DNA of 29,460 bases from Tolypothrix carrinoi HA7290-LM1 (GTDB lineage Bacteria > Cyanobacteriota > Cyanobacteriia > Cyanobacteriales > Nostocaceae), in contig JAHHIK010000099.1 in assembly GCA_019358935.1 (NCBI GenBank), forward strand, positions 1 through 29,460. Reading direction: 5' to 3'. Positions 4,187-28,839 of the stretch are shown piece after piece (position 1 is the stretch's first letter; every line of letters begins with the position of its first letter). The translations under genes were made by a program, and so were the position numbers. The notes under the pieces were generated by a model. The model searched no databases. It was not told where the DNA came from and saw only the letters and a program-made list of their open reading frames with translations.

Positions 4187-4498
4187 GTTAGTAGTTAGAG
4201 GTTAGTAGTTAGTAGTTAGTAGTTAGTAGTTAGTAGTTATTAGTTCATATTAGCAACTAATAATTAACACCAATTCTCTATAAATATACTCTTAACAAGC
4301 CCGCGTAGGCGGAGAGAAGTTTGAGCGGAGGTTTCCTCCGATCAAAGCTTCGGAGCTTCGTTCGTTTAGCCCCAGGCTTCCAGCCTGAGGGCGAATAAAA
4401 CGCAACATCACAGATAATTAGTATAACCACCAACCACCAACAACCAACCACCAACCACCAACCACTAACAACTAACCACTAACAACCAACCACCAACA
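4187..4498. repeat. STRR tracts (TTAGTAG)n and (ACCACCA/ACCAACA)n flanking a composite dispersed repeat
   Basis: Heptamer arrays at about 4187-4245 and 4426-4498. The central 4298-4393 segment has hairpins, including cggaggtttcctccg. Confidence 0.75.
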
Positions 4499-4503
4499 AA
4501 TCT

Positions 4504-10577: not shown

Positions 10578-13097
10578 TTAAGAATACACTTGGGCAATGG
10601 TGATGATTTTTTCATCGCGGTTAAGCTGGAGAACGCTTTCACCGGTAGCATCTCTGCCTAACAAAGGCACTGTTTCTACACTAAGACGCACTACCCGCTC
10701 TCGATTTGTTACCAGCGCTACTTCAGAAGAAGCGATCGCCATTACCATACCAGCTAGGTTGTCAGTTTTACTTTTAAACTTCAGCGCTTGCGTACCCAAA
10801 TCGCCGCGATTAGCTAGTTTGAAATCTTTCACTGGTATTCGTTTGGCATATCCTTCTTGAGTAACCAACAACAAATTACAATCCTTGGCAAATGTTACAC
10901 AGCCGACCATTTGCTGATGTTTCAACAGCCGTAATGCTTGCAACCCGACAGCAGTACGACCCATAATCGCTAATTGTTCATCATTTACCGGAAACCGCAA
11001 CAATCGCCCACCGGAACTGGCAACAATTAGATGTTCTCCAGGAGTAGTGAATTGGCTAAATAACAATTCATCATCGTCTTTTAGCTTTAAAATTGTAATT
11101 CCGCGACGAGTCAGGTTAGTAAATTCCCCTAGGGAAAGGCGCTTAATTCGTGCCTGCTTTGTCAAAAGAATCATTTGCGAGGTTTCGGCGTTTTCTGGCA
11201 GTACAAAGCGGTTGATAACAGCTTCTTGAGAGCCTTGAGCGGTACTACTGAGCATGGTTATCAGCGGTTTTCCCCGTGGAGAACGTCCAGTAGTTGGGGG
11301 AATATCTCCTACGTTCACAGGGTAGACTTTACCACCACTAGTTAACACCATTAACTCTTTGTCTGTATCAGTCACTGCTGTTTGGATAATGAAGTCATTA
11401 TCTGACAAACCGTTGTCAGCTTTCGGCTTTTTAGCTGATGGCTGAGTACGGCGCACATACCCCCGCTGGCTAAACTCTAAAACAACTTCTTCTACAGGTT
11501 CTTCGGATTTTGGATTTTCGATTTTGGATTTTAAATTTTCCTCTTTGTCTCCTTGTCTCCTTGTCTGGTTGTCTTCTTGCCCCTTTGTCTGGGTATCAAG
11601 AGCCAAAAGTTTGGTACGACGAGCATCGCTGTACTTGCGCTTGAGAGTACGCAAGTCTTTTTTCAGCGCTTTGAGTAACTCTTTTCTGTCGTTAAGCAAC
11701 CGTTGTAATAATTCAATTTCCTCAGCTAATTGCTCAAACTCCCGCTGTAAGTTTTGCTGTTCTAAACTGGTGAGACGCCGCAACGGCATAGCTAAAATCG
11801 CATCTGCTTGGACTTCAGTCAAATCGAGCAGGCTACACAGATCGATTTTTGCGCTAGCACCATCAGCCGCTTGCCGCAAAATCTCAATTACATCATCTAA
11901 GTTAGATAGTGCTTTGAGCAAGCCTTCAAGCAAATGTAGGCGATTTTGTGCTTTTTCTAACTCGTGGGTGTAACGCCGATTAAGAGTCTGTTCGCGGAAA
12001 CTTAAAAATTCCTGCAACAAATGACGCAAACTAAGCTGGCGAGGTTGTCCATCAACGATCGCTAAAAGAATTGCCCCAAAATTAGTTTGCAGAGCGGTTT
12101 GGTGATATAAATGCCCAAGAACATCTTGGGGATTAGTATCGCGTTTGAGTTCAATGACGACGCGCATACCTTCGCGATCGCTTTCATCCCGCAGATCGGA
12201 AATTCCTTGCAAGCGACCTTGATTGACTAATTCCGCTACTTTCTCAATCCAAGCTGCCTTATTCACTTGATAAGGCAATTCCGTAATGATAATTGCTGTT
12301 CGCCGTTTGCTACCCCTAACAGGTGCAATTTCCTCTATTTGGGCAACTCCTCGCAGCACAATACCACCCTTACCTGTGCTGTATGCCTCGCGAATGCCAG
12401 CATCACCAATGATTTCCCCACCGGTGGGAAAATCTGGACCCGGAATTAGCTGAAATAATTTTTCATCACTTAGATCGGGATTGTCGATTAAGGCAATTAA
12501 CCCATCAACTACTTCCCCTAAGTTGTGCGGTGGAATATTTGTTGCCATCCCTACGGCAATACCCGCACAGCCATTTAGCAACAAGAACGGCAACTGCGCT
12601 GGTAACACTGTTGGTTCTTGCTGGGAATTATCGAAGTTACCGATAAATTCCACCGTTTCTTCACCAATTTCTGTCAGCATTCCCTCATGGCTAATGGCTG
12701 CAAGGCGCGTTTCTGTGTAGCGCATCGCTGCGGGTGGGTCGTTATCCACACTGCCAAAGTTGCCATGTCCTGCCAATAACGGATACCGACTAGAAAAATC
12801 CTGCACCAACCGAACCAAAGCGTCATAAACCGATTGGTCGCCGTGGGGATGATATTTACCCAGTACGTCTCCGACTACACGAGCGCACTTACGATAGGGT
12901 CTGTCAGGGGTTAAACCGAGTTCGTGCATCGCATACAAAATGCGCCGATGCACTGGTTTTAAGCCATCACGCACGTCTGGTAACGCCCGCCCGACAATCA
13001 CACTCATGGCATATTCAAGGTAAGACCGTTGCATCTCCGTGTGCAGGGCTGTGGTGATTACCTGTCCCGTTGGGAGAAGATTTAACTGTTTTGCCAT
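10578..13097 (-). CDS. gyrA: Type IIA topoisomerase subunit A (GyrA paralogue, ParC-like, no evident GyrA-box)
   Basis: Motifs [22 protein letters not shown] and AAMRYTE (catalytic Tyr), plus beta-pinwheel repeats. Likely start MAKQLNLL at 13097. Confidence 0.9.
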
Positions 13098-13829: not shown

Positions 13830-14002
13830 GGGGGATTGGGAGTGGAGGAGTGGGGGAGTGGGGGAGTGGGGAAGTGGGGGCGTGGGGGAAGGTGAGGGAG
13901 ATAAGGAATAAATTCTTTTTTGTCCTCCTTGTCCTCCTTGTCCTCCTTGTCCCCCCCTCTCCTTGTCCCCCCCTCTCCTTGTCCCCCCCTCTCCCCCTCC
14001 TC
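13830..14002. repeat. STRR-like purine/pyrimidine tracts (GGGGAGTG)n and (CTTGTCCTC)n
   Basis: Read directly from the sequence. Confidence 0.85.
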
Positions 14003-14881
14003 TTATTGCGGCTGTCTATTGACTGACGGGGTTTGCTTTGGCTGGCGGGCAGCTTGAATGCGAGGTAATTCGAGGAATTTCTTCGTATCAGCGATCAAGC
14101 GATCGCCCCAGAGATTCTCCTTCAGGAAAGTCAAATCACCATAGCGCTCGTCGATTCGCATTGCAGCTTCTCCCATTGCCAAACCAGAAGCGCGATCGCC
14201 TTTAGTATACAGTGCCACTGCCAATGCTAATAAAGGTTCTGCGGCTTGTTTTTCTAGGGCAACTGCCGTTTGCCATTGCTTGATTGCGCCGGGGATATTG
14301 CCCTGTTCGTAGTTAATTAACCCGACGTTGTTAATCGCGGGCCAGAATTTTTTGTCAGCGGCTACTGCTTTATTGTATTGGGCGATCGCTTCTGGAAATC
14401 TACTCAGCTTATAGTAGGCATTCCCTAAATCAAACAATCCCTCTGAGTCATTGGGTTTTAACTTCAAACCCGCTTGATAATACTCAGCCGCAGCTTGGTA
14501 CTTTTGCTGCTGAAAATTAGCTGAACCCAAAGCAAACTGAACGTCAGCATTCTTCGGGTTGAGAGATTGTGCCTTATTTAAAGCAGCGATCGCTGTATCC
14601 AACTGCTTGTTTTGCAAATACAAGCCACCTAAGAGAAACCATACTTTATCATTCTTAGGAGCGAGTTGAGATGCCAACTTTGCTCGTGGTAAAGCCATTT
14701 CCATCTGTTGAAACTGCGCTAGTTGAGCCGCTTCTTGCGCCAGACTCAACCCCTGCTGCTCCAATTTAGATGTATCAAGTTGCAGTGTATGAGGAATCAA
14801 TGCCTGTGCATGAGCTTTATAAGGCAAACTCCAGAAACTACAGGCAATTAAAAGCGAAATTAATCGAACTAATTTGGGCAC
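14003..14881 (-). CDS. Secreted TPR-repeat protein
   Basis: Signal peptide ending AHA-Q, with multiple TPR motifs (e.g. LFDLGNAYYKLSRFPEAIAQYNKA). Confidence 0.9.
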   Translation of the reverse strand: MPKLVRLISLLIACSFWSLPYKAHAQALIPHTLQLDTSKLEQQGLSLAQEAAQLAQFQQMEMALPRAKLASQLAPKNDKVWFLLGGLYLQNKQLDTAIAALNKAQSLNPKNADVQFALGSANFQQQKYQAAAEYYQAGLKLKPNDSEGLFDLGNAYYKLSRFPEAIAQYNKAVAADKKFWPAINNVGLINYEQGNIPGAIKQWQTAVALEKQAAEPLLALAVALYTKGDRASGLAMGEAAMRIDERYGDLTFLKENLWGDRLIADTKKFLELPRIQAARQPKQTPSVNRQPQ

Positions 14882-14967: not shown

Positions 14968-15180
14968 GGGCATTGGGCATTGGTAATTGGGCATTGGGCA
15001 TTGGGCATTGGGCATTGGGCATTGGGCATTGGGAAAAAAGAATTATTTGCCTTTCCTGTACTCCCCCTTGTCTCCCTTGTCCACGCCAGATGCTTCAAGT
15101 CTTTTGACCGAACGCACTGGCTCCCCTTGTCTCCCTTGTCTCCCTTGTCTCCTTGTCCCCCAGTCCCCATGCCCCAGTCT
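14968..15180. repeat. STRR (GGGCATT)n, (CCCTTGTCT)n and an SDR copy at 15084-15124
   Basis: Read directly: cgccagatgcttcaagtc...cgcactggctcc. Confidence 0.85.
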
Positions 15181-15460: not shown

Positions 15461-16918
15461 ATGCAAATAGAAGTCCCCGTATTTGGTAAAGTAAAGAATC
15501 CATTCCGCTGGCTGATTGGGCTGATGGCTGCTGGTGTGGTGGTTGTTGGCGCAACGACGACATACACCTTTGTAAATCAGGGTACACGCAAAGAGGATAT
15601 TACGCAACTAACTGTGCCAGTGGAAGCGAAAAACGTCACTTTGCGGATTACGACTAGTGGTAAGGTTGTACCAGTTCAAAGCGTGAATATTAGCCCGAAA
15701 AATCCGGGAACCTTAAAACAATTGTATGTTGAGCAAGGCGATCGCGTCCAAGCAGGACAAATTCTTGCCCGGATGGATAGTGCAGACATTGAAGCAAGAA
15801 TCCTGCAATTTCGCGCTTCTTTAGCTCAATCTCAGGCTCAGTTAGCCGAAGCACAAGCCGGAAGTCGTCCTCAAGAAATCGATCAATCGAAAGCGCGTTT
15901 ATCACAAGCCCAAGCGCAATTAGCCCAAGCACAAGCGGGAAATCGTCCTCAAGAAATTGCTCAAGCTCAAGCTTTGGTAGATGCAGCTCAAGCAAAGGCG
16001 AATTACAGCAGCGAACAAGTCAAGCGTTACCAATATTTATATCAGCAGGGAGCAGTTCAAAAACAAGAATTAGATCAATTTATCAGCGAAGATAAAAGCG
16101 CGAAAGCGAACTTGCTTGAAGCACAAAAGCGATTATCGCTGCAACAAGCTGGTAGCCGTTCTGAAGAAATCGCTCAACGCAAAGCCGCAGTAGAAGAAGC
16201 AAAAGCGCAGTTGCGGTTGTTGGAAAATGGCACCCGTCCGGAAGTAATTAATCAGCGTAAAGCAGGTGTGGCATCAGCGCAGGCTCAATTGAAGGCGGAG
16301 CAAGTTAATTTAGAAGAAACGATTATCCGCGCACCTTTTGCGGGAATTGTCACCCAGAAGTATGCTAACATCGGCGCGTTTGTCACCCCAACAACTTCTG
16401 CCTCAAGTAGTGCCTCAGCAACTTCTAGTTCAATTGTCGCTGTCGCACGCGGTTTAGAAGTGCTAGCGCAAGTCCCAGAAGCTGATATCGGCAGAATTAA
16501 ACAGGGACAATCAGTGGAAATTGTCGCCGATGCTTATCCAGATCAAGTTTTTAAAGGACGTGTACGCCTAATTTCTCCAGAAGCAGTAGTAGAACAAGGT
16601 GTAACATCCTTTCAAATACGAGTTGCATTGGATACGGGCGCAGATAAATTGCGTTCTGGCTTAAATGTCGATTTGACGTTTTTAGGCGATCGCTTGTCAA
16701 ATGCTCTCGTATTACCGACAGTGGCAATTGTTACCGAAAAAGGTCAAACCGGTGTGTTAATCCCAGACGCGAAAAATAAACCCCAGTTTCGCGCAGTCAC
16801 AATCGGTTCGCAAATCAAAGACCAAACTCAGATTTTAGAGGGAGTTAAAGCAGGCGATCGCGTCTTTATTAACCCTCCGAAAGAATACAAAATCGAACAA
16901 AAGAGGGGGAATGGGTAA
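15461..16918 (+). CDS. Efflux periplasmic adaptor (MacA/HlyD family)
   Basis: N-terminal TM, lipoyl halves LYVEQGDRVQAGQ and IRAPFAGIV, and a long coiled coil. Confidence 0.93.
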   Translation: MQIEVPVFGKVKNPFRWLIGLMAAGVVVVGATTTYTFVNQGTRKEDITQLTVPVEAKNVTLRITTSGKVVPVQSVNISPKNPGTLKQLYVEQGDRVQAGQILARMDSADIEARILQFRASLAQSQAQLAEAQAGSRPQEIDQSKARLSQAQAQLAQAQAGNRPQEIAQAQALVDAAQAKANYSSEQVKRYQYLYQQGAVQKQELDQFISEDKSAKANLLEAQKRLSLQQAGSRSEEIAQRKAAVEEAKAQLRLLENGTRPEVINQRKAGVASAQAQLKAEQVNLEETIIRAPFAGIVTQKYANIGAFVTPTTSASSSASATSSSIVAVARGLEVLAQVPEADIGRIKQGQSVEIVADAYPDQVFKGRVRLISPEAVVEQGVTSFQIRVALDTGADKLRSGLNVDLTFLGDRLSNALVLPTVAIVTEKGQTGVLIPDAKNKPQFRAVTIGSQIKDQTQILEGVKAGDRVFINPPKEYKIEQKRGNG

Positions 16919-17197
16919 TGGGTAATGGGTAATTGGGAATGGGGAATGGGGCATGGGGACAAGGAGGACAAGGAGGACAAGGAGGACAAGGAGGACGACT
17001 TGGGGACAATTTGTTTGTATTACCAATTACCAATTAGCACATTCCCAATGCCCATTGCCCATTGCCCATTGACGGCAGATGCTCCACTTGGGGAGCCACC
17101 CCCGTGGGCGGGTTTCCCGACTTGAGGGGAGTGGCGTGAGACCCCAAGACCGCACTGCCTCCCCAATGCCCATTGCCCAATTCCCAATTCCTAATTC
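16907..17197. repeat. STRR tracts with a nested SDR element (17073-17164)
   Basis: (ATGGGTA/ATGGGGA)n, (GGACAAGGA)n, (CCCATTG)n and cggcagatgctcc...ccccaagaccgcactgcct. Confidence 0.8.
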
Positions 17198-18467: not shown

Positions 18468-18729
18468 GAAGTTTCGTGTTCTGAACTCGAAGTTCCGTGT
18501 TCTGAACTCGAAGTTTCATGTTCTGAACTCGAAGTTTCAGCCTTTGAACTCGAAGTTTCAGCCTTTGAACTCGAAGTTTCAGCCTTTGAACTCGAAGTTT
18601 CGTGTTCTGAACTCGAAGTTTCAGCCTTTGAACTCGAAGTTTCGTGTTCTGAACTCGAAGTTTCAGCCTTTGAACACCAACTTTCGTCCTCTGAACTCGA
18701 AGTTTCAGCCTTTGAACTCGAAGTTTCGT
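18468..18729. repeat. 21-bp tandem array, 12 units plus a partial 13th
   Basis: Unit GAAGTTTC-[GTGTTC/AGCCTT/ATGTTC/GTCCTC]-TGAACTC, with no unique spacers. Confidence 0.95.
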
Positions 18730-18754
18730 CACACAAAGAACTTAAATTAGGCTC

Positions 18755-22823: not shown

Positions 22824-23161
22824 CAGTAGATCACAAAGTTTTTTCAGAAGTGCGATCGCCAACTCTTCAGAAGGCGAACACAAGTACTAAGAGCCATTTA
22901 TTTATAAATAAAACTTATAACTTGCTGTTTGGTTAAGAAAAGATGAAATTATCAGTATTGTAAATAACGTAGTGGCTAACATAAATTGACTTTTTCATTA
23001 AAAACACCAGTTCTGACAGACTCAGAAACCTTAGATGAAGTTATTGATTATTTGATAGAAAACATTTCTATTCAAACCCAAGGAGCTTTTGAGCCAAAAA
23101 GTCTATTTGAAATTTTGATAGCCTGGCGATCGCACTTCTGGAAAAAATTTGTGATCTACTG
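22824..23161 (+). mobile_element. 338-bp MITE: internally deleted ISH3-family element
   Basis: TIRs CAGTAGATCACAAAGTTTTTTCAGAAGTGCGATCGCCA / TGGCGATCGCACTTCTGGAAAAAATTTGTGATCTACTG, and a 5-bp TSD AATGT (22819-22823 and 23162-23166). The internal mini-ORF 22986-23162 resembles an ISH3 transposase N-terminus. Confidence 0.85.
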
Positions 23162-23164
23162 AAT

Positions 23165-23191
23165 GTAGAGACGTAGCAGTGCTACGTCTCT
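23165..23191. repeat. REP-like palindrome (GTAGAGACG family)
   Basis: gtagagacgtagcagtgctacgtctcta. Confidence 0.8.
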
Positions 23192-23230
23192 AAGGGTTTT
23201 GGATAACGCATATTTAAAAAAGAGCGTTAG

Positions 23231-23482
23231 GTACTTCAACACGATATTTAAGTACTTCAACACGATATTTAAGTACTTCAACACGATATTTAAGTACTTC
23301 AACACGATATTCGGGTACTTCAACACGATATTTAAGTACTTCAACACGATATTTAAGTACTTCAACACGATATTTAAGTACTTCAACACGATATTTAAGT
23401 ACTTCAACACGATATTTGGGTACTTCAACACGATATTTGGGTACTTCAACACGATATTTGGGTACTTCAACACGATATTTAA
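23231..23482. repeat. 21-bp tandem array, 12 units
   Basis: Unit GTACTTCAACACGATATT followed by TAA (x8), CGG (x1) or TGG (x3). Confidence 0.96.
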
Positions 23483-23685
23483 AGGCTTAAGAACAAGAAA
23501 TAAAATTTTTTATACTTTGAATTCTAGAGATTCCAAGTGAAATTAGGGAATAAATATCAGATTTCACCGTAAACTTCACTTCAGTTTTGGTGGTTTTTAC
23601 TCAGGGAAAGAGGAATGGCAAATGGCTAAAGTGGAACCACAAGTCTGTACTAATTTCCACACGAGTTTTTGTAGGAGAGGCATTC

Positions 23686-24129
23686 ATGGCACGACTGAAA
23701 CGCAGTTCTATGGTATTGGATAAGGCAACGCTACGGATATCGGGGATGCGATCGATTAGCGAAACGCTTGAGTTTGGCGATGGCTTGAGTTTAGCGGAGT
23801 ATGAAAGGCGGATTCAAACCTTGCAAATGAAGCTATCGAGCTACAACACGATGCTTTCCACGCTGGATGAAGCGGTGGGGCAGATTGAATTGCTAGAGCA
23901 GGAGTTGAGAAGCTACTCGGAAAAAATGTTGATGAGTGTGGCAACGCGCTATGGCAAGAACAGTTTGCAGTATATGCAGGCAGGGGGTAAACCACGCAAG
24001 AGTAGTAAGCGACCCGTGGGGAATACTGTACTGACGACTGCACCAACGACGACGATTGCAGCAGTGATGACACTGAATACAGAGAACGCAACGCCAAATG
24101 TCGAGGGCACGAAGGCGTTGGTAAAATGA
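23686..24129 (+). CDS. Uncharacterised basic/helical protein (YGxxSxxYxxAGG motif)
   Basis: Strong RBS AGGAGAGG before ATG 23686. 147 aa, reading MARLKRSS..., a coiled-coil middle, then RYGKNSLQYMQAGGKPRK. Confidence 0.85.
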   Translation: MARLKRSSMVLDKATLRISGMRSISETLEFGDGLSLAEYERRIQTLQMKLSSYNTMLSTLDEAVGQIELLEQELRSYSEKMLMSVATRYGKNSLQYMQAGGKPRKSSKRPVGNTVLTTAPTTTIAAVMTLNTENATPNVEGTKALVK

Positions 24130-24184
24130 ACTACCTAGGCACTCCGCAAATAAAATCGCTCCGCTCATCTGACCGTAATTACGG

Positions 24185-24862
24185 TCAAGCAATTGAATCA
24201 GGATCTACACCAAGCGCCCTCAACCTTTGGGCTAATATCTCGGCGCGTTGTTGAGCTTGTTTTGCTTGTTCTTCTGGTGTTAACAATCTTTTTCCATGCT
24301 CGTCATACCAATATAACCACTCCCGCGTAATACTTTGATAAGTTCCCGTTTCCATACCAATTCCCAAATTAACCTCTGGTAGCCATACGGGATTGCTATC
24401 TTGTAATTGATATACGCCATCTACTAACTTGTAAACTTCAAAACGTGGCTTGCGGCGGCGAGTGGGATTGTAGACTACATAATACAAAACTCCTAGCTTT
24501 GCATACTCGTCTTTTTTGGTTGTGTACTCTCCACGATAACTTTGAGAAACTACTTCCAGCACAAATATGGGAACTTGCTCTTCTTCCCAAATTGCATAAC
24601 TCAGACGGAGGTTTTCATCAAAAAACCGCTCAACTCCCAAACTCAAAAATCCATCTGGTACTATTGGGGGTAGATTGGGGTCGTAATATACTCCCATATC
24701 AACGCCAAAAAACCAATCCATTCTATCTGCCCAAGCCATAGCTAATATGGCTTCCAGCAAATTTGGCATTAAATGTTGCAGTTGATTATCCACAGGAGTA
24801 TCGTCCGAGTCGGGCAGTTCCTCAGAAGAGGGCAAGCAAGCTAATGGATCGTACTTTAACAT
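24185..24862 (-). CDS. Uma2 family endonuclease-like protein
   Basis: Motifs LPDSDDTPVDN, PIVPDGFLSLG, VLEVVS, YYVVYNP and LRALGVDP. Confidence 0.93.
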   Translation of the reverse strand: MLKYDPLACLPSSEELPDSDDTPVDNQLQHLMPNLLEAILAMAWADRMDWFFGVDMGVYYDPNLPPIVPDGFLSLGVERFFDENLRLSYAIWEEEQVPIFVLEVVSQSYRGEYTTKKDEYAKLGVLYYVVYNPTRRRKPRFEVYKLVDGVYQLQDSNPVWLPEVNLGIGMETGTYQSITREWLYWYDEHGKRLLTPEEQAKQAQQRAEILAQRLRALGVDPDSIA

Positions 24863-26142: not shown

Positions 26143-26218
26143 AGACGTTCCGTCGGAACGTCTGTACGAAAGTTAGGAGTTATTATTTGTCCCCAGTCCC
26201 CAGTCCCCAGTCCCCAGT
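26140..26218. repeat. REP-like palindrome (overlapping the chlI stop) and STRR (CCCCAGT)n
   Basis: gtagagacgttccgtcggaacgtctgtac, then tccccagtccccagtccccagtccccagt. Confidence 0.8.
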
Positions 26219-26252
26219 GATGAGATTTTGGCGTTTTTGGTTTCAGACTTTT

Positions 26253-26516
26253 GTGATATCTAGTCAATACAATCCACCTCGGTTTGTAGAGCTATTGATG
26301 TTGATGCTGGCGATCGCTATGCTAGCAATTGCGACTGTTATACCCGACAGACCTTTTTTGGTACTGGGTTTGAGTTTAGTAGTTGGAGCGTCTATTTCCA
26401 TCTTAGTGCGAGAAGCGATCGCTCCCTCACCCCAAACGCGAATCACTCAAATTACAGCACTGCTATTGCTCATCATCAGCATATATGGCTTTGCCGACAT
26501 CATCAAAACGCTTTAG
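26253..26516 (+). CDS. Small membrane protein (about 3 TM segments)
   Basis: Hydrophobic ORF PPRFVELLMLMLAIAML... Start uncertain (GTG 26253 or ATG 26220). Confidence 0.7.
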   Translation: MISSQYNPPRFVELLMLMLAIAMLAIATVIPDRPFLVLGLSLVVGASISILVREAIAPSPQTRITQITALLLLIISIYGFADIIKTL

Positions 26517-26755
26517 TGGATAGTGGAAGCGTTGATAGTGGATAGTGGGTAGTGGGTAGTTGATAGTGGGTAGTTGTTAGTTGATAGTTGATAGTGGGTA
26601 GTTGTTAGTTGATAGTTGATAGTGGGTAGTCGATAGTCGATAGTCGATAGTCGATAGTCGATAGTCGATAACTGTTGACTGTTAACCGTCAACCAACAAC
26701 TATCAACCAACAACGAACAACGAACAACCAACAACTATCAACCAACAACCAACAA
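26515..26755. repeat. Inverted STRR tracts (GATAGTG/GATAGTC)n and (CAACCAA)n
   Basis: Read directly from the sequence. Confidence 0.85.
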
Positions 26756-27844
26756 TCACCACCCCTGCATTTCCACTAATTCCATACACAATTCGTTAAT
26801 TTCCTCTAAGTCAGGTTTATGTGGCAAAGTTGATTCTTGATAAACACTTTCCATTTTAGCTACTAAATCTTCTGCCATTTTCATTACCTGCTCATAAGAA
26901 TACTCACCATTGAGAATTGCTCTTAAATCTTCCGCATCACCAGCAATTCGTCTATCTACAATCACTTCTCCTGTACGTAATATCTCTACTCCACTACGTA
27001 GCAAGCGAATGCAGTGCATCCCATGTTTGAGGTCAAAACCTGACTTTTTTTCCATTTCAGCTCTAGCGGGATTTCTATTTTCCTGCCAGGATAAGTAAGC
27101 TTTCCATTCTCTTAAAGCAACTTGGTAACTTTGACTTTTTTGAAGCAAGCGAATAAAATCTTTGCGGCTATTTGTTAAGTTTTGTGTATAATCTAAAGTC
27201 TCATCCGGTAAAGTATATTGTTTCAGCACTCCTTTGAAGTCGATATCAGCCGTCAATAACTGATATAATTGTTCGGCTTCTTCTAAAAACTCGATTCTTC
27301 CTCTAATTAAGAGATAAAGATACTCCAAAAAGGCGTTTAACTCATCTTTGCTGAGAGTTGCTTCTTCTTCTATGCCAAAATCAGATGGTAGTGGTTTATT
27401 TTGCGGTGGATGTAACAACCACTTGCGATGACTTTCCATTTTTTTGATTTGAGCAAAAGCGTAACCAGAATAAGTATGCTTGACCTTTTTGCTCAAAAAT
27501 AGCTGTTTGTGGTTAATTAAATGCTGTCCTACGTTCGTTAATACAGGATATTCATTCAACCACAGCAATTCTAAAACGTTGGGATTTGCTCCCGATAGTA
27601 ACTGAATGATTTTTCTTAATTCGTAGATAACGGTGTCTTTGTTTTGATCTAAAAACGGAAAGATTCCTGGTTCATCCCAACCACTATCTTTTTGTTCAAT
27701 GCGGTCAAAGCCTAAATAATATCTTTTGGATGCAATAAATACCCCACGATAATCATAGTCTGAACTCGGACGATTTAAACCATAGCCGTGGCTACCAGCC
27801 AAACCTACAAAAATCGCTCTTTGTTCAACTTCGATTCTTTTCAT
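26756..27844 (-). CDS. DNA polymerase beta superfamily nucleotidyltransferase (RlaP/YcgL-like)
   Basis: GSHGYGL...SDYDYRG signature, plus ANPNVLELL, YSGYA and GFDLKHGMHCIRLL. Confidence 0.85.
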   Translation of the reverse strand: MKRIEVEQRAIFVGLAGSHGYGLNRPSSDYDYRGVFIASKRYYLGFDRIEQKDSGWDEPGIFPFLDQNKDTVIYELRKIIQLLSGANPNVLELLWLNEYPVLTNVGQHLINHKQLFLSKKVKHTYSGYAFAQIKKMESHRKWLLHPPQNKPLPSDFGIEEEATLSKDELNAFLEYLYLLIRGRIEFLEEAEQLYQLLTADIDFKGVLKQYTLPDETLDYTQNLTNSRKDFIRLLQKSQSYQVALREWKAYLSWQENRNPARAEMEKKSGFDLKHGMHCIRLLRSGVEILRTGEVIVDRRIAGDAEDLRAILNGEYSYEQVMKMAEDLVAKMESVYQESTLPHKPDLEEINELCMELVEMQGW

Positions 27845-28692: not shown

Positions 28693-28700
28693 TATATAAG

Positions 28701-28821
28701 GGAATTGGGCATTGGGCATTGGGCATTGGGCATTGGGCATTGGGCATTGGTAATTCGGAAAGCGTTTTTTCCATTCCCCATTCCCCATTACCCATTACCC
28801 ATTCCCCATTCCCCATTCCCC
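28701..28821. repeat. STRR tracts (GGGCATT)n / (CCCCATT)n between rplU and rpmA
   Basis: Read directly from the sequence. Confidence 0.9.
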
Positions 28822-28839
28822 ACTACAAAAGAGGAAATT

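Follow-up and report, generated by a model that had tools for sequence, protein, structure and literature searches.

The window analysed here, contig C99 of the 8.0-Mb genome of Tolypothrix carrinoi HA7290-LM1 (29,460 nucleotides), carries a tandem array of twelve 21-bp units followed by a leader and a gene for a small basic protein. The features of the locus are as follows.

18468–18730, no strand: 21-bp array of another family (26 copies in the genome, the largest family), with no linked gene found
22824–23161, no strand: 338-bp element ending in 38–39-bp terminal inverted repeats, with a 5-bp target duplication; a recent insertion unrelated to the module
23165–23192, no strand: GTAG-tagged, REP-like palindrome; part of the host queG upstream region, not of the module
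23231–23482, no strand: tandem array of twelve 21-bp units, non-coding; proposed binding platform (unit listing, subfamily consensus, dyad and coding tests)
23483–23685, plus strand: AT-rich leader from array to gene
23537–23567: leader inverted repeat; not a module part
23600–23632, plus strand: promoter-like pair, a CTCAG box (23600–23604) and an extended −10-like TGGCTAAAGT (23623–23632), 22 nt apart; candidate gene promoter, downstream of the array
23673–23680, plus strand: ribosome-binding site AGGAG/GAGG
23686–24129, plus strand: gene for a 147-residue basic helical protein of an undescribed family (ORF, structure model, conservation and dN/dS)
24171–24186: downstream palindrome; not a module part

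Array, leader and gene at the queG–Uma2 site

A preliminary description of this DNA had reported twelve units with 18 invariant bases and a three-base slot, and both our unit listing and Tandem Repeats Finder (12.2 copies, 95% match, score 442) bore this out. The units are contiguous, and the slot reads TAA in eight of them, TGG in three and CGG in one. A whole-genome scan at up to two mismatches found the unit core nowhere else in the genome. The 147-residue ORF with its ribosome-binding site was likewise recovered, running from the ATG at 23686 to 24129 behind an AGGAG at 23673–23677. Its GC content (0.495) exceeds that of queG (0.445), the Uma2 gene (0.425) and the genome as a whole (0.423), in line with the reported contrast to its flanks, and Pfam confirmed both flanking genes.

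The leader separating array from ATG is 203 bases long in the window (median 181 nt at 143 loci), and it has no stable fold (z +1.3) and no terminator-like site. Its promoter-like pattern matches 35 of 49 leaders of the subfamily, 33 of them in register, and is probably the promoter of the gene, in which case the array itself does not overlap the promoter. Because this conserved element sits between array and gene, the array probably lies upstream of the transcript. By eye, the leaders of loci L028–L031 and L091–L094 hold a TTGACA or TTGACT and a −10-like hexamer 19 bases apart. A 19-base promoter spacing is typical where DNA distortion is needed.

The three palindromes that had been counted into the module are present in the sequence, but comparison with relatives removed them from it. 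The GTAG palindrome pattern has 362 matches on both strands of the genome, and in five of the seven relatives shown (G202, G204, G206, G208 and G210) it stands upstream of queG without an adjoining module; it resembles the GTAG repeats described for cyanobacteria in PMC3733652. Among 45 close homologues, the leader hairpin pattern occurs in 11 and the downstream palindrome in none. Since the GTAG palindrome is independent and the two smaller hairpins are not kept, the unit consists of array, leader and gene. Two further features of the window had been absent from the preliminary description, namely the gene-less array at 18468–18730 and the 338-bp element. The latter is a single copy in the genome, is missing from the corresponding site in G201 and holds a 58-residue ORF remnant, which we take to resemble a piece of an ISH3-family transposase. 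Elsewhere in the window, short tandem repeats of 7, 8 and 9 bp lie at 4187–4499, 11500–11592, 13838–14003, 14968–15161, 16906–17197, 26189–26755 and 28700–28822, as is ordinary for heterocyst-forming cyanobacteria, and a 362-residue ORF occupies 26756–27844 on the minus strand, presumably a predicted nucleotidyltransferase judging by its motif.

The block was suspected to be accessory, and it is indeed absent at the queG–Uma2 site of two relatives of the same genus: G204 runs from queG to Uma2 with the GTAG palindrome and without array or gene, and G209 lacks both. The interval is a variable hotspot, nearly empty in these two genomes, filled with about 5 kb of other genes in G208 and with 14 kb in G206. 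The G206 block (L232, G206:C14:2871500–2888000) contains PIN, LRR and XisH/XisI genes and the module, together with what we assume to be a Thg1-like pair. An XisH/XisI pair stands upstream of the module in six relatives, and the sequence upstream of the array varies between relatives. Filled and empty sites differ by replacement, with no target duplication. We considered autonomous mobility of the module; given the 14-kb block and the XisH/XisI pairs, insertion and deletion around an older island fit equally well.

Gene-linked and gene-less arrays

At 50% identity the protein family forms 776 clusters. Of 201 cyanobacterial genomes, 17 contain it, 13 with strong results of 4–17 matches each; in the host's taxonomic family it is present in 54 of 151 genomes, with 1–20 matches each. 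One named homologue comes from Dinghuibacter, and one Atlas cluster is mostly Thermodesulfobacteriota. Matches were seen in 2 of 72,556 plasmids and 0 of 50,697 phages, and viral contigs gave no family match; the family is chromosomal. The 112 nearest genes around 61 loci differ from locus to locus, even between close homologues, and no partner is conserved. A single IS605 gene was among them, none being conserved.

At 143 of 151 homologue loci an array with a 20–21-bp period lies upstream of the gene, compared with 1 of 98 downstream controls scored alike; the loci are related rather than independent, and the association holds in 20 protein subfamilies. They were drawn from GTDB genomes, metagenomes and genome searches, leaving out three duplicates, fragments or weak matches (profile score below 90) and loci with less than 500 nt upstream. 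Five of the eight loci scored as array-less do show weaker periodicity, seen by eye or as a signal below threshold. Of 18 loci of distant metagenome homologues with sufficient flank, 12 had 21, 42 or 63 as their best upstream period. The source genome itself tells the same: it has ten paralogues, nine of them close and the tenth in a distant subfamily (E 3e-5; a profile comparison of that subfamily gave 86%, limited to the C-terminal 38 columns). A clear array precedes nine of the ten genes and a short, degenerate one the remaining gene, against a base rate of 1.1% (62 of 5485 ORFs with such an array within 500 nt upstream). The enrichment of 21-bp arrays beside homologues that had been anticipated is thus real, and array and gene, earlier proposed to be one functional unit, are one unit.

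What is kept across these loci is not the unit sequence. Arrays are about 220 nt long (median 221), and their length and period persist where units are only 50–70% alike; a few arrays lie 0.9–1.1 kb away from the gene. Within one genome, units differ completely between subfamilies, some being GC-rich, and those of the ten paralogues are all different except for one related pair. As had been suggested, the unit diverges along with the protein: unit similarity is about 0.50 below 45% protein identity and 0.93 above 85% (Mantel rho 0.68 over 85 loci, six poorly delimited ones dropped), a co-divergence that physical linkage alone predicts. No residue-to-base code was visible across subfamilies, the N-terminal arms and tails being nearly alike despite unrelated units.

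The consensus unit of the window's 47-locus subfamily contains an imperfect palindrome, TT[TG]RR-GTAC-YYCAA, with a seven-base second half-unit, and its dyad symmetry is significant (p = 0.012); that of the window array taken alone is not (p = 0.16). Symmetry at p < 0.05 was found in 37 of 91 single arrays and in the consensuses of 12 of 20 subfamilies, the other eight being not significant. Hence the kept feature of the arrays is their period together with a two-fold symmetric consensus. A distant second subfamily of highly conserved proteins of about 124 residues (L119 at G000:C70:18429–18800, minus strand; L106–L117; L274–L278) has arrays with a palindrome, AWTGYA-N6-TRCAWT, that is common across genera, and offers the best test case for sequence-specific binding.

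Arrays of this kind also occur without a gene. Among long periods, 21 is the most frequent in the source genome. Its non-heptamer arrays of 21-bp period number 129, in families of 26, 21, 14, 10, 6 and fewer copies, and 107 of these arrays appear to be non-coding. Some 100 arrays without a gene lie dispersed between genes in either orientation and outnumber the family genes about tenfold. Five array families contain a gene-linked array of the source genome, a sixth matches the degenerate array of a paralogue and one of a relative, and three more match gene-linked arrays of other genomes; two orphans hold a piece of a gene leader. Orphans with the window's own unit occur in G204, G206 and G208. 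No master gene was found for orphan families 0 and 2 or for the largest orphan family, to which the array at 18468–18730 belongs. This largest family is present in 48 of the 151 host-family genomes, 43 of which also have the main gene family and three more the distant subfamily, a tally of two lists that is confounded by kinship; in G324 and G246 neither query found a family gene. At the site of 18468–18730, the insert is missing altogether from one relative, and a second relative has exactly 210 bp less.

The tenfold excess and the two genomes with orphans but no gene found indicate that arrays can persist without the protein, and the number of gene-less arrays together with the exact 210-bp difference indicates that they expand and contract easily. 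Several orphans among those on G000:C102, C114, C167, C17, C2, C36, C38, C68 and C121 lie between common short inverted ends, AGTACAGC ... GCTGTACT, like a miniature element with a captured array. At L237 (G208:C379), an orphan of the window's family and about 100 further bases are enclosed in a direct repeat of about 33 bp. In several other genomes, arrays of the largest orphan family adjoin the ends of repeat-protein genes that resemble TPR proteins on a reading of their sequence.

Conservation and predicted structure of the protein

The gene is under purifying selection. In 12 of 14 measurable pairs dN/dS lay between 0.07 and 0.37, and the two higher values (0.71 and 0.75) came from pairs with dS below 0.07; four saturated pairs, of 18 in all, were left out. 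Two metatranscriptome runs shared 4–6% of words with the homologous locus L064, and their contigs cover the flanking repeats and the neighbouring gene only.

AlphaFold2 modelled the monomer with a mean pLDDT of 87.6. The predicted layout comprises an ordered basic N-terminal arm, a helix over residues 9–24, a beta-hairpin and a 54-residue helix (36–89), followed by a short YG-x-x-S helix, an AGG motif, a basic tail and a variable, low-confidence C-terminus. Two copies were modelled as an antiparallel homodimer centred near residue 58, with a score of 0.65 against 0.00 for the best control; the runs shared 100% of contacts at a pLDDT of at least 87, and the score mark is reached by 20 of 30 proteins solved as one-chain pairs and by 1 of 23 single-chain proteins. 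Modelled contacts 70–46, 74–42 and 77–39 define the antiparallel register, from which the rod would be about 91 Å long, compared with 71 Å for 21 bp. The model thus supports, short of showing, an antiparallel homodimer. Conserved basic positions are found in the arm (3, 5 and 6), in helix 1 (13, 17 and 22), at the rod ends (80, 88 and 91) and in the tail (103–109), and the median net charge of family proteins is +5.

Querying Pfam and NCBIfam with the window protein and 143 members gave nothing above cut-off. PHROGs and PADLOC returned scattered weak coiled-coil matches and no assignment; the best PADLOC matches concerned one or two of 20 members at E of at least 0.001, and no defence family was common to the members. 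The best hit of a PDB sequence search had an E value of 0.06, Rfam gave nothing near its gathering score, no Atlas neighbour of the protein carries a name, and Foldseek found no match at E ≤ 0.001 in the PDB and viral sets. The best VIA-align result (Z 6.7, rmsd 2.7, 85 aligned) placed ESCRT-III-like proteins and designed helical hairpins tied in one band, a likeness we regard as generic, so that from these models neither kinship nor a new fold follows. Longer fused forms of the protein, whose absence is weak evidence, were not found.

Proposed mechanism and its alternatives

The preliminary description had offered three roles for the array: a phased binding platform for the protein, a transcribed repeat RNA and a periodic peptide. 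The data favour the first, with binding putative. In our judgement, the array is probably bound cooperatively by the dimers, which would control their own promoter. The locus would be a two-part, stand-alone chromosomal module: a non-coding array of about ten two-fold symmetric 21-bp units, followed by the promoter and gene of a small basic protein. That protein is predicted to form an antiparallel coiled-coil dimer, a rod about 90 Å long that is lined with basic residues. One dimer would occupy each unit, and neighbouring dimers would overlap end to end to form a short filament on one face of the DNA. The 21 bp correspond to two turns (71 Å), and the two dyads 10.5 bp apart would match the dimer axis and the dimer–dimer junction. 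Such a filament may set expression of the gene, with the array buffering free protein, and low specificity per site combined with cooperativity would allow joint drift of each paralogue and its unit. Gene-less arrays would be copies that outlive their gene and perhaps serve as extra binding sites. Where a symmetric basic rod is encoded next to a symmetric array whose period is two turns, a cooperative filament is the simplest reading. As the rod exceeds one unit in length, this reading has to assume overlap or oblique binding.

Small dimers that act on phased tandem repeats have precedents. Type II and III partition adaptors (ParR/parC, TubR/tubC) are thought to polymerise on such repeats upstream of their own gene. 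The module differs from them in that none of the 112 nearest neighbours of 61 loci is a ParA/ParM/TubZ-type NTPase, no ribbon-helix-helix (RHH) or winged-helix fold is apparent in the model, and many paralogues have private repeats. Fold searches for adaptor folds (RHH, winged helix, ParB HTH) gave generic helical matches alone, absence from such lists being insufficient to exclude a family. The working model is borrowed from the alpha-helical KfrA of the IncU plasmid RA3, which regulates its own gene and binds five direct repeats at the promoter (PMC7783346). Both proteins are alpha-helical, dimerise (here by prediction) and are encoded beside a repetitive DNA site. KfrA, as characterised in that source, has an N-terminal HTH, 9-nt repeats over the promoter, the partners KfrC, KorB and IncC and a plasmid or phage context. 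In contrast, the module shows no HTH in the model or the domain search, has about ten dyad units of 21 bp upstream of its promoter and no conserved partner, and is chromosomal.

The gene-less arrays have parallels of their own. One gene-linked master with many dispersed copies recalls the GTAG REPs and their RAYT transposases (PMC3733652); however, the GTAG palindrome is independent of the module and the protein has no transposase match. Features of REP/RAYT systems or MITEs sought at the module, bounding terminal repeats or a target duplication at filled and empty sites and a conserved transposase neighbour, were not found. Spacer-less intergenic arrays of short units are also formed by the BrickBuilt minisatellite-MITE of Porphyromonas gingivalis, which is described as having 23-nt units, a leader, a tail and inverted ends, with no linked gene family named (PMC4596501). 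Most orphans here lack common ends, and their units trace to gene-linked arrays.

A different purpose for the same binding step is improbable in our estimate: the array would be a DNA sink that restrains a harmful protein, whose release on chromosome degradation or module loss would cause addiction or abortive infection. Its attraction lies in the scattered, patchy, multi-copy distribution (54 of 151 genomes, 1–20 matches) and in neighbours that include Uma2 nucleases (8 of 112, with 114 such genes in the source genome) as well as PIN, HepT, XisH and restriction domains; for HU-HIG proteins, such a pattern has been interpreted as a role in conflict (PMC5499826). However, the model has no evident catalytic or membrane motif, fragments and broken copies of the gene exist, no defence family is common to the members, and Uma2- and PIN-type neighbours are common at variable sites in such genomes.

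We consider it also improbable that host proteins read the array as a cis-regulatory or structural DNA element, or that it acts through intrinsic curvature, with the protein doing something else. In favour, phased A/T dinucleotides are among the best conserved positions of the window-subfamily unit. On the other side, units that are unrelated between subfamilies argue against one shared host factor, some units are GC-rich, only 1.1% of genes in the source genome have such an array upstream, and the protein is modelled as basic and two-fold symmetric like the array.

It is highly improbable that transcription of the array yields a repeat RNA by which the protein is bound or neutralised. Tandem repeats, short leader and small gene do follow one another as in type III toxin–antitoxin loci (ToxIN, CptIN, TenpIN; PMC3401426), and symmetric arrays fold below mononucleotide shuffles (window array z −1.9). 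However, the units are 21 bp long, as against 31–46 nt for the ToxI repeats aligned in that source, no terminator-like site separates array and gene, the promoter-like element is downstream of the array, and the sequence upstream of it varies. Pairing within a unit is no better than across units (mean difference −0.05, 52 tests), shuffling unit order leaves the folding energy almost unchanged, and the centroid structure of the window array is empty. No hairpin compensation was seen within units, and a structured repeat RNA is not supported. A Pfam search of 143 members gave no ToxN-, CptN- or TenpN-type endoribonuclease, and the model is a helical hairpin rod.

Already largely refuted, and least credible to us, is that the repeats code for a peptide partner with a 7-residue period or represent neutral DNA made by slippage. 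Two repeat ORFs (113 and 105 residues) do run across the window array, and an open frame exists in most homogenised arrays (sense in 65 of 83, antisense in 63), which a single repeated 21-mer would be expected to give. The gene-less arrays and the 210-bp difference would suit neutrality. Against the peptide, codon-phased conservation is absent from all 26 degenerate arrays, stops close all six frames in seven of them, and the best period of 12 of 143 arrays (20, 40, 41, 62 or 83) is not a multiple of 3. Against neutrality, side, length and period stay fixed across homologues as distant as about 35–45% identity, which neutral repeats cannot account for. The array is therefore neither a peptide gene nor a hairpin RNA.

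The module lacks the tested defining features of type III toxin–antitoxin, KfrA, partition and REP/MITE systems. A literature search over titles and abstract openings of openly accessible articles found no published description of the family or its arrays. Elhai et al. in 2008 reportedly treated small dispersed repeats of Nostoc and could mention 21-bp arrays. We rate the family and its arrangement as new; its likely working principle has known analogues.

Returning to cooperative binding of dimers along the array, its weakest step is the wider role, for which a local DNA-coating, nucleoid-type function in the accessory genome is the most likely. A bolder and rather doubtful extension, for which we see some chance, is that these proteins are a widespread, undescribed class of DNA-binding rods that read length and phase without an HTH. 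Each of up to about twenty paralogues would co-evolve with a private 21-bp address, and about 100 dispersed arrays would be additional ones. On this view the family might serve to organise, pair or silence sites on the large chromosomes of cyanobacteria, and arrays in the bound state might favour being copied themselves.

The family is notable in that 776 clusters have no Pfam, NCBIfam, PHROG, PADLOC or PDB assignment, yet a candidate binding site stands beside nearly every gene. Because natural protein–DNA pairs with different units exist, specificity can be tested by swapping them. If binding is true, the family would represent a new DNA-binding architecture, the antiparallel coiled-coil rod, and a possible source of orthogonal regulator–operator pairs, and the origin of a major class of intergenic repeats in such genomes would be explained.
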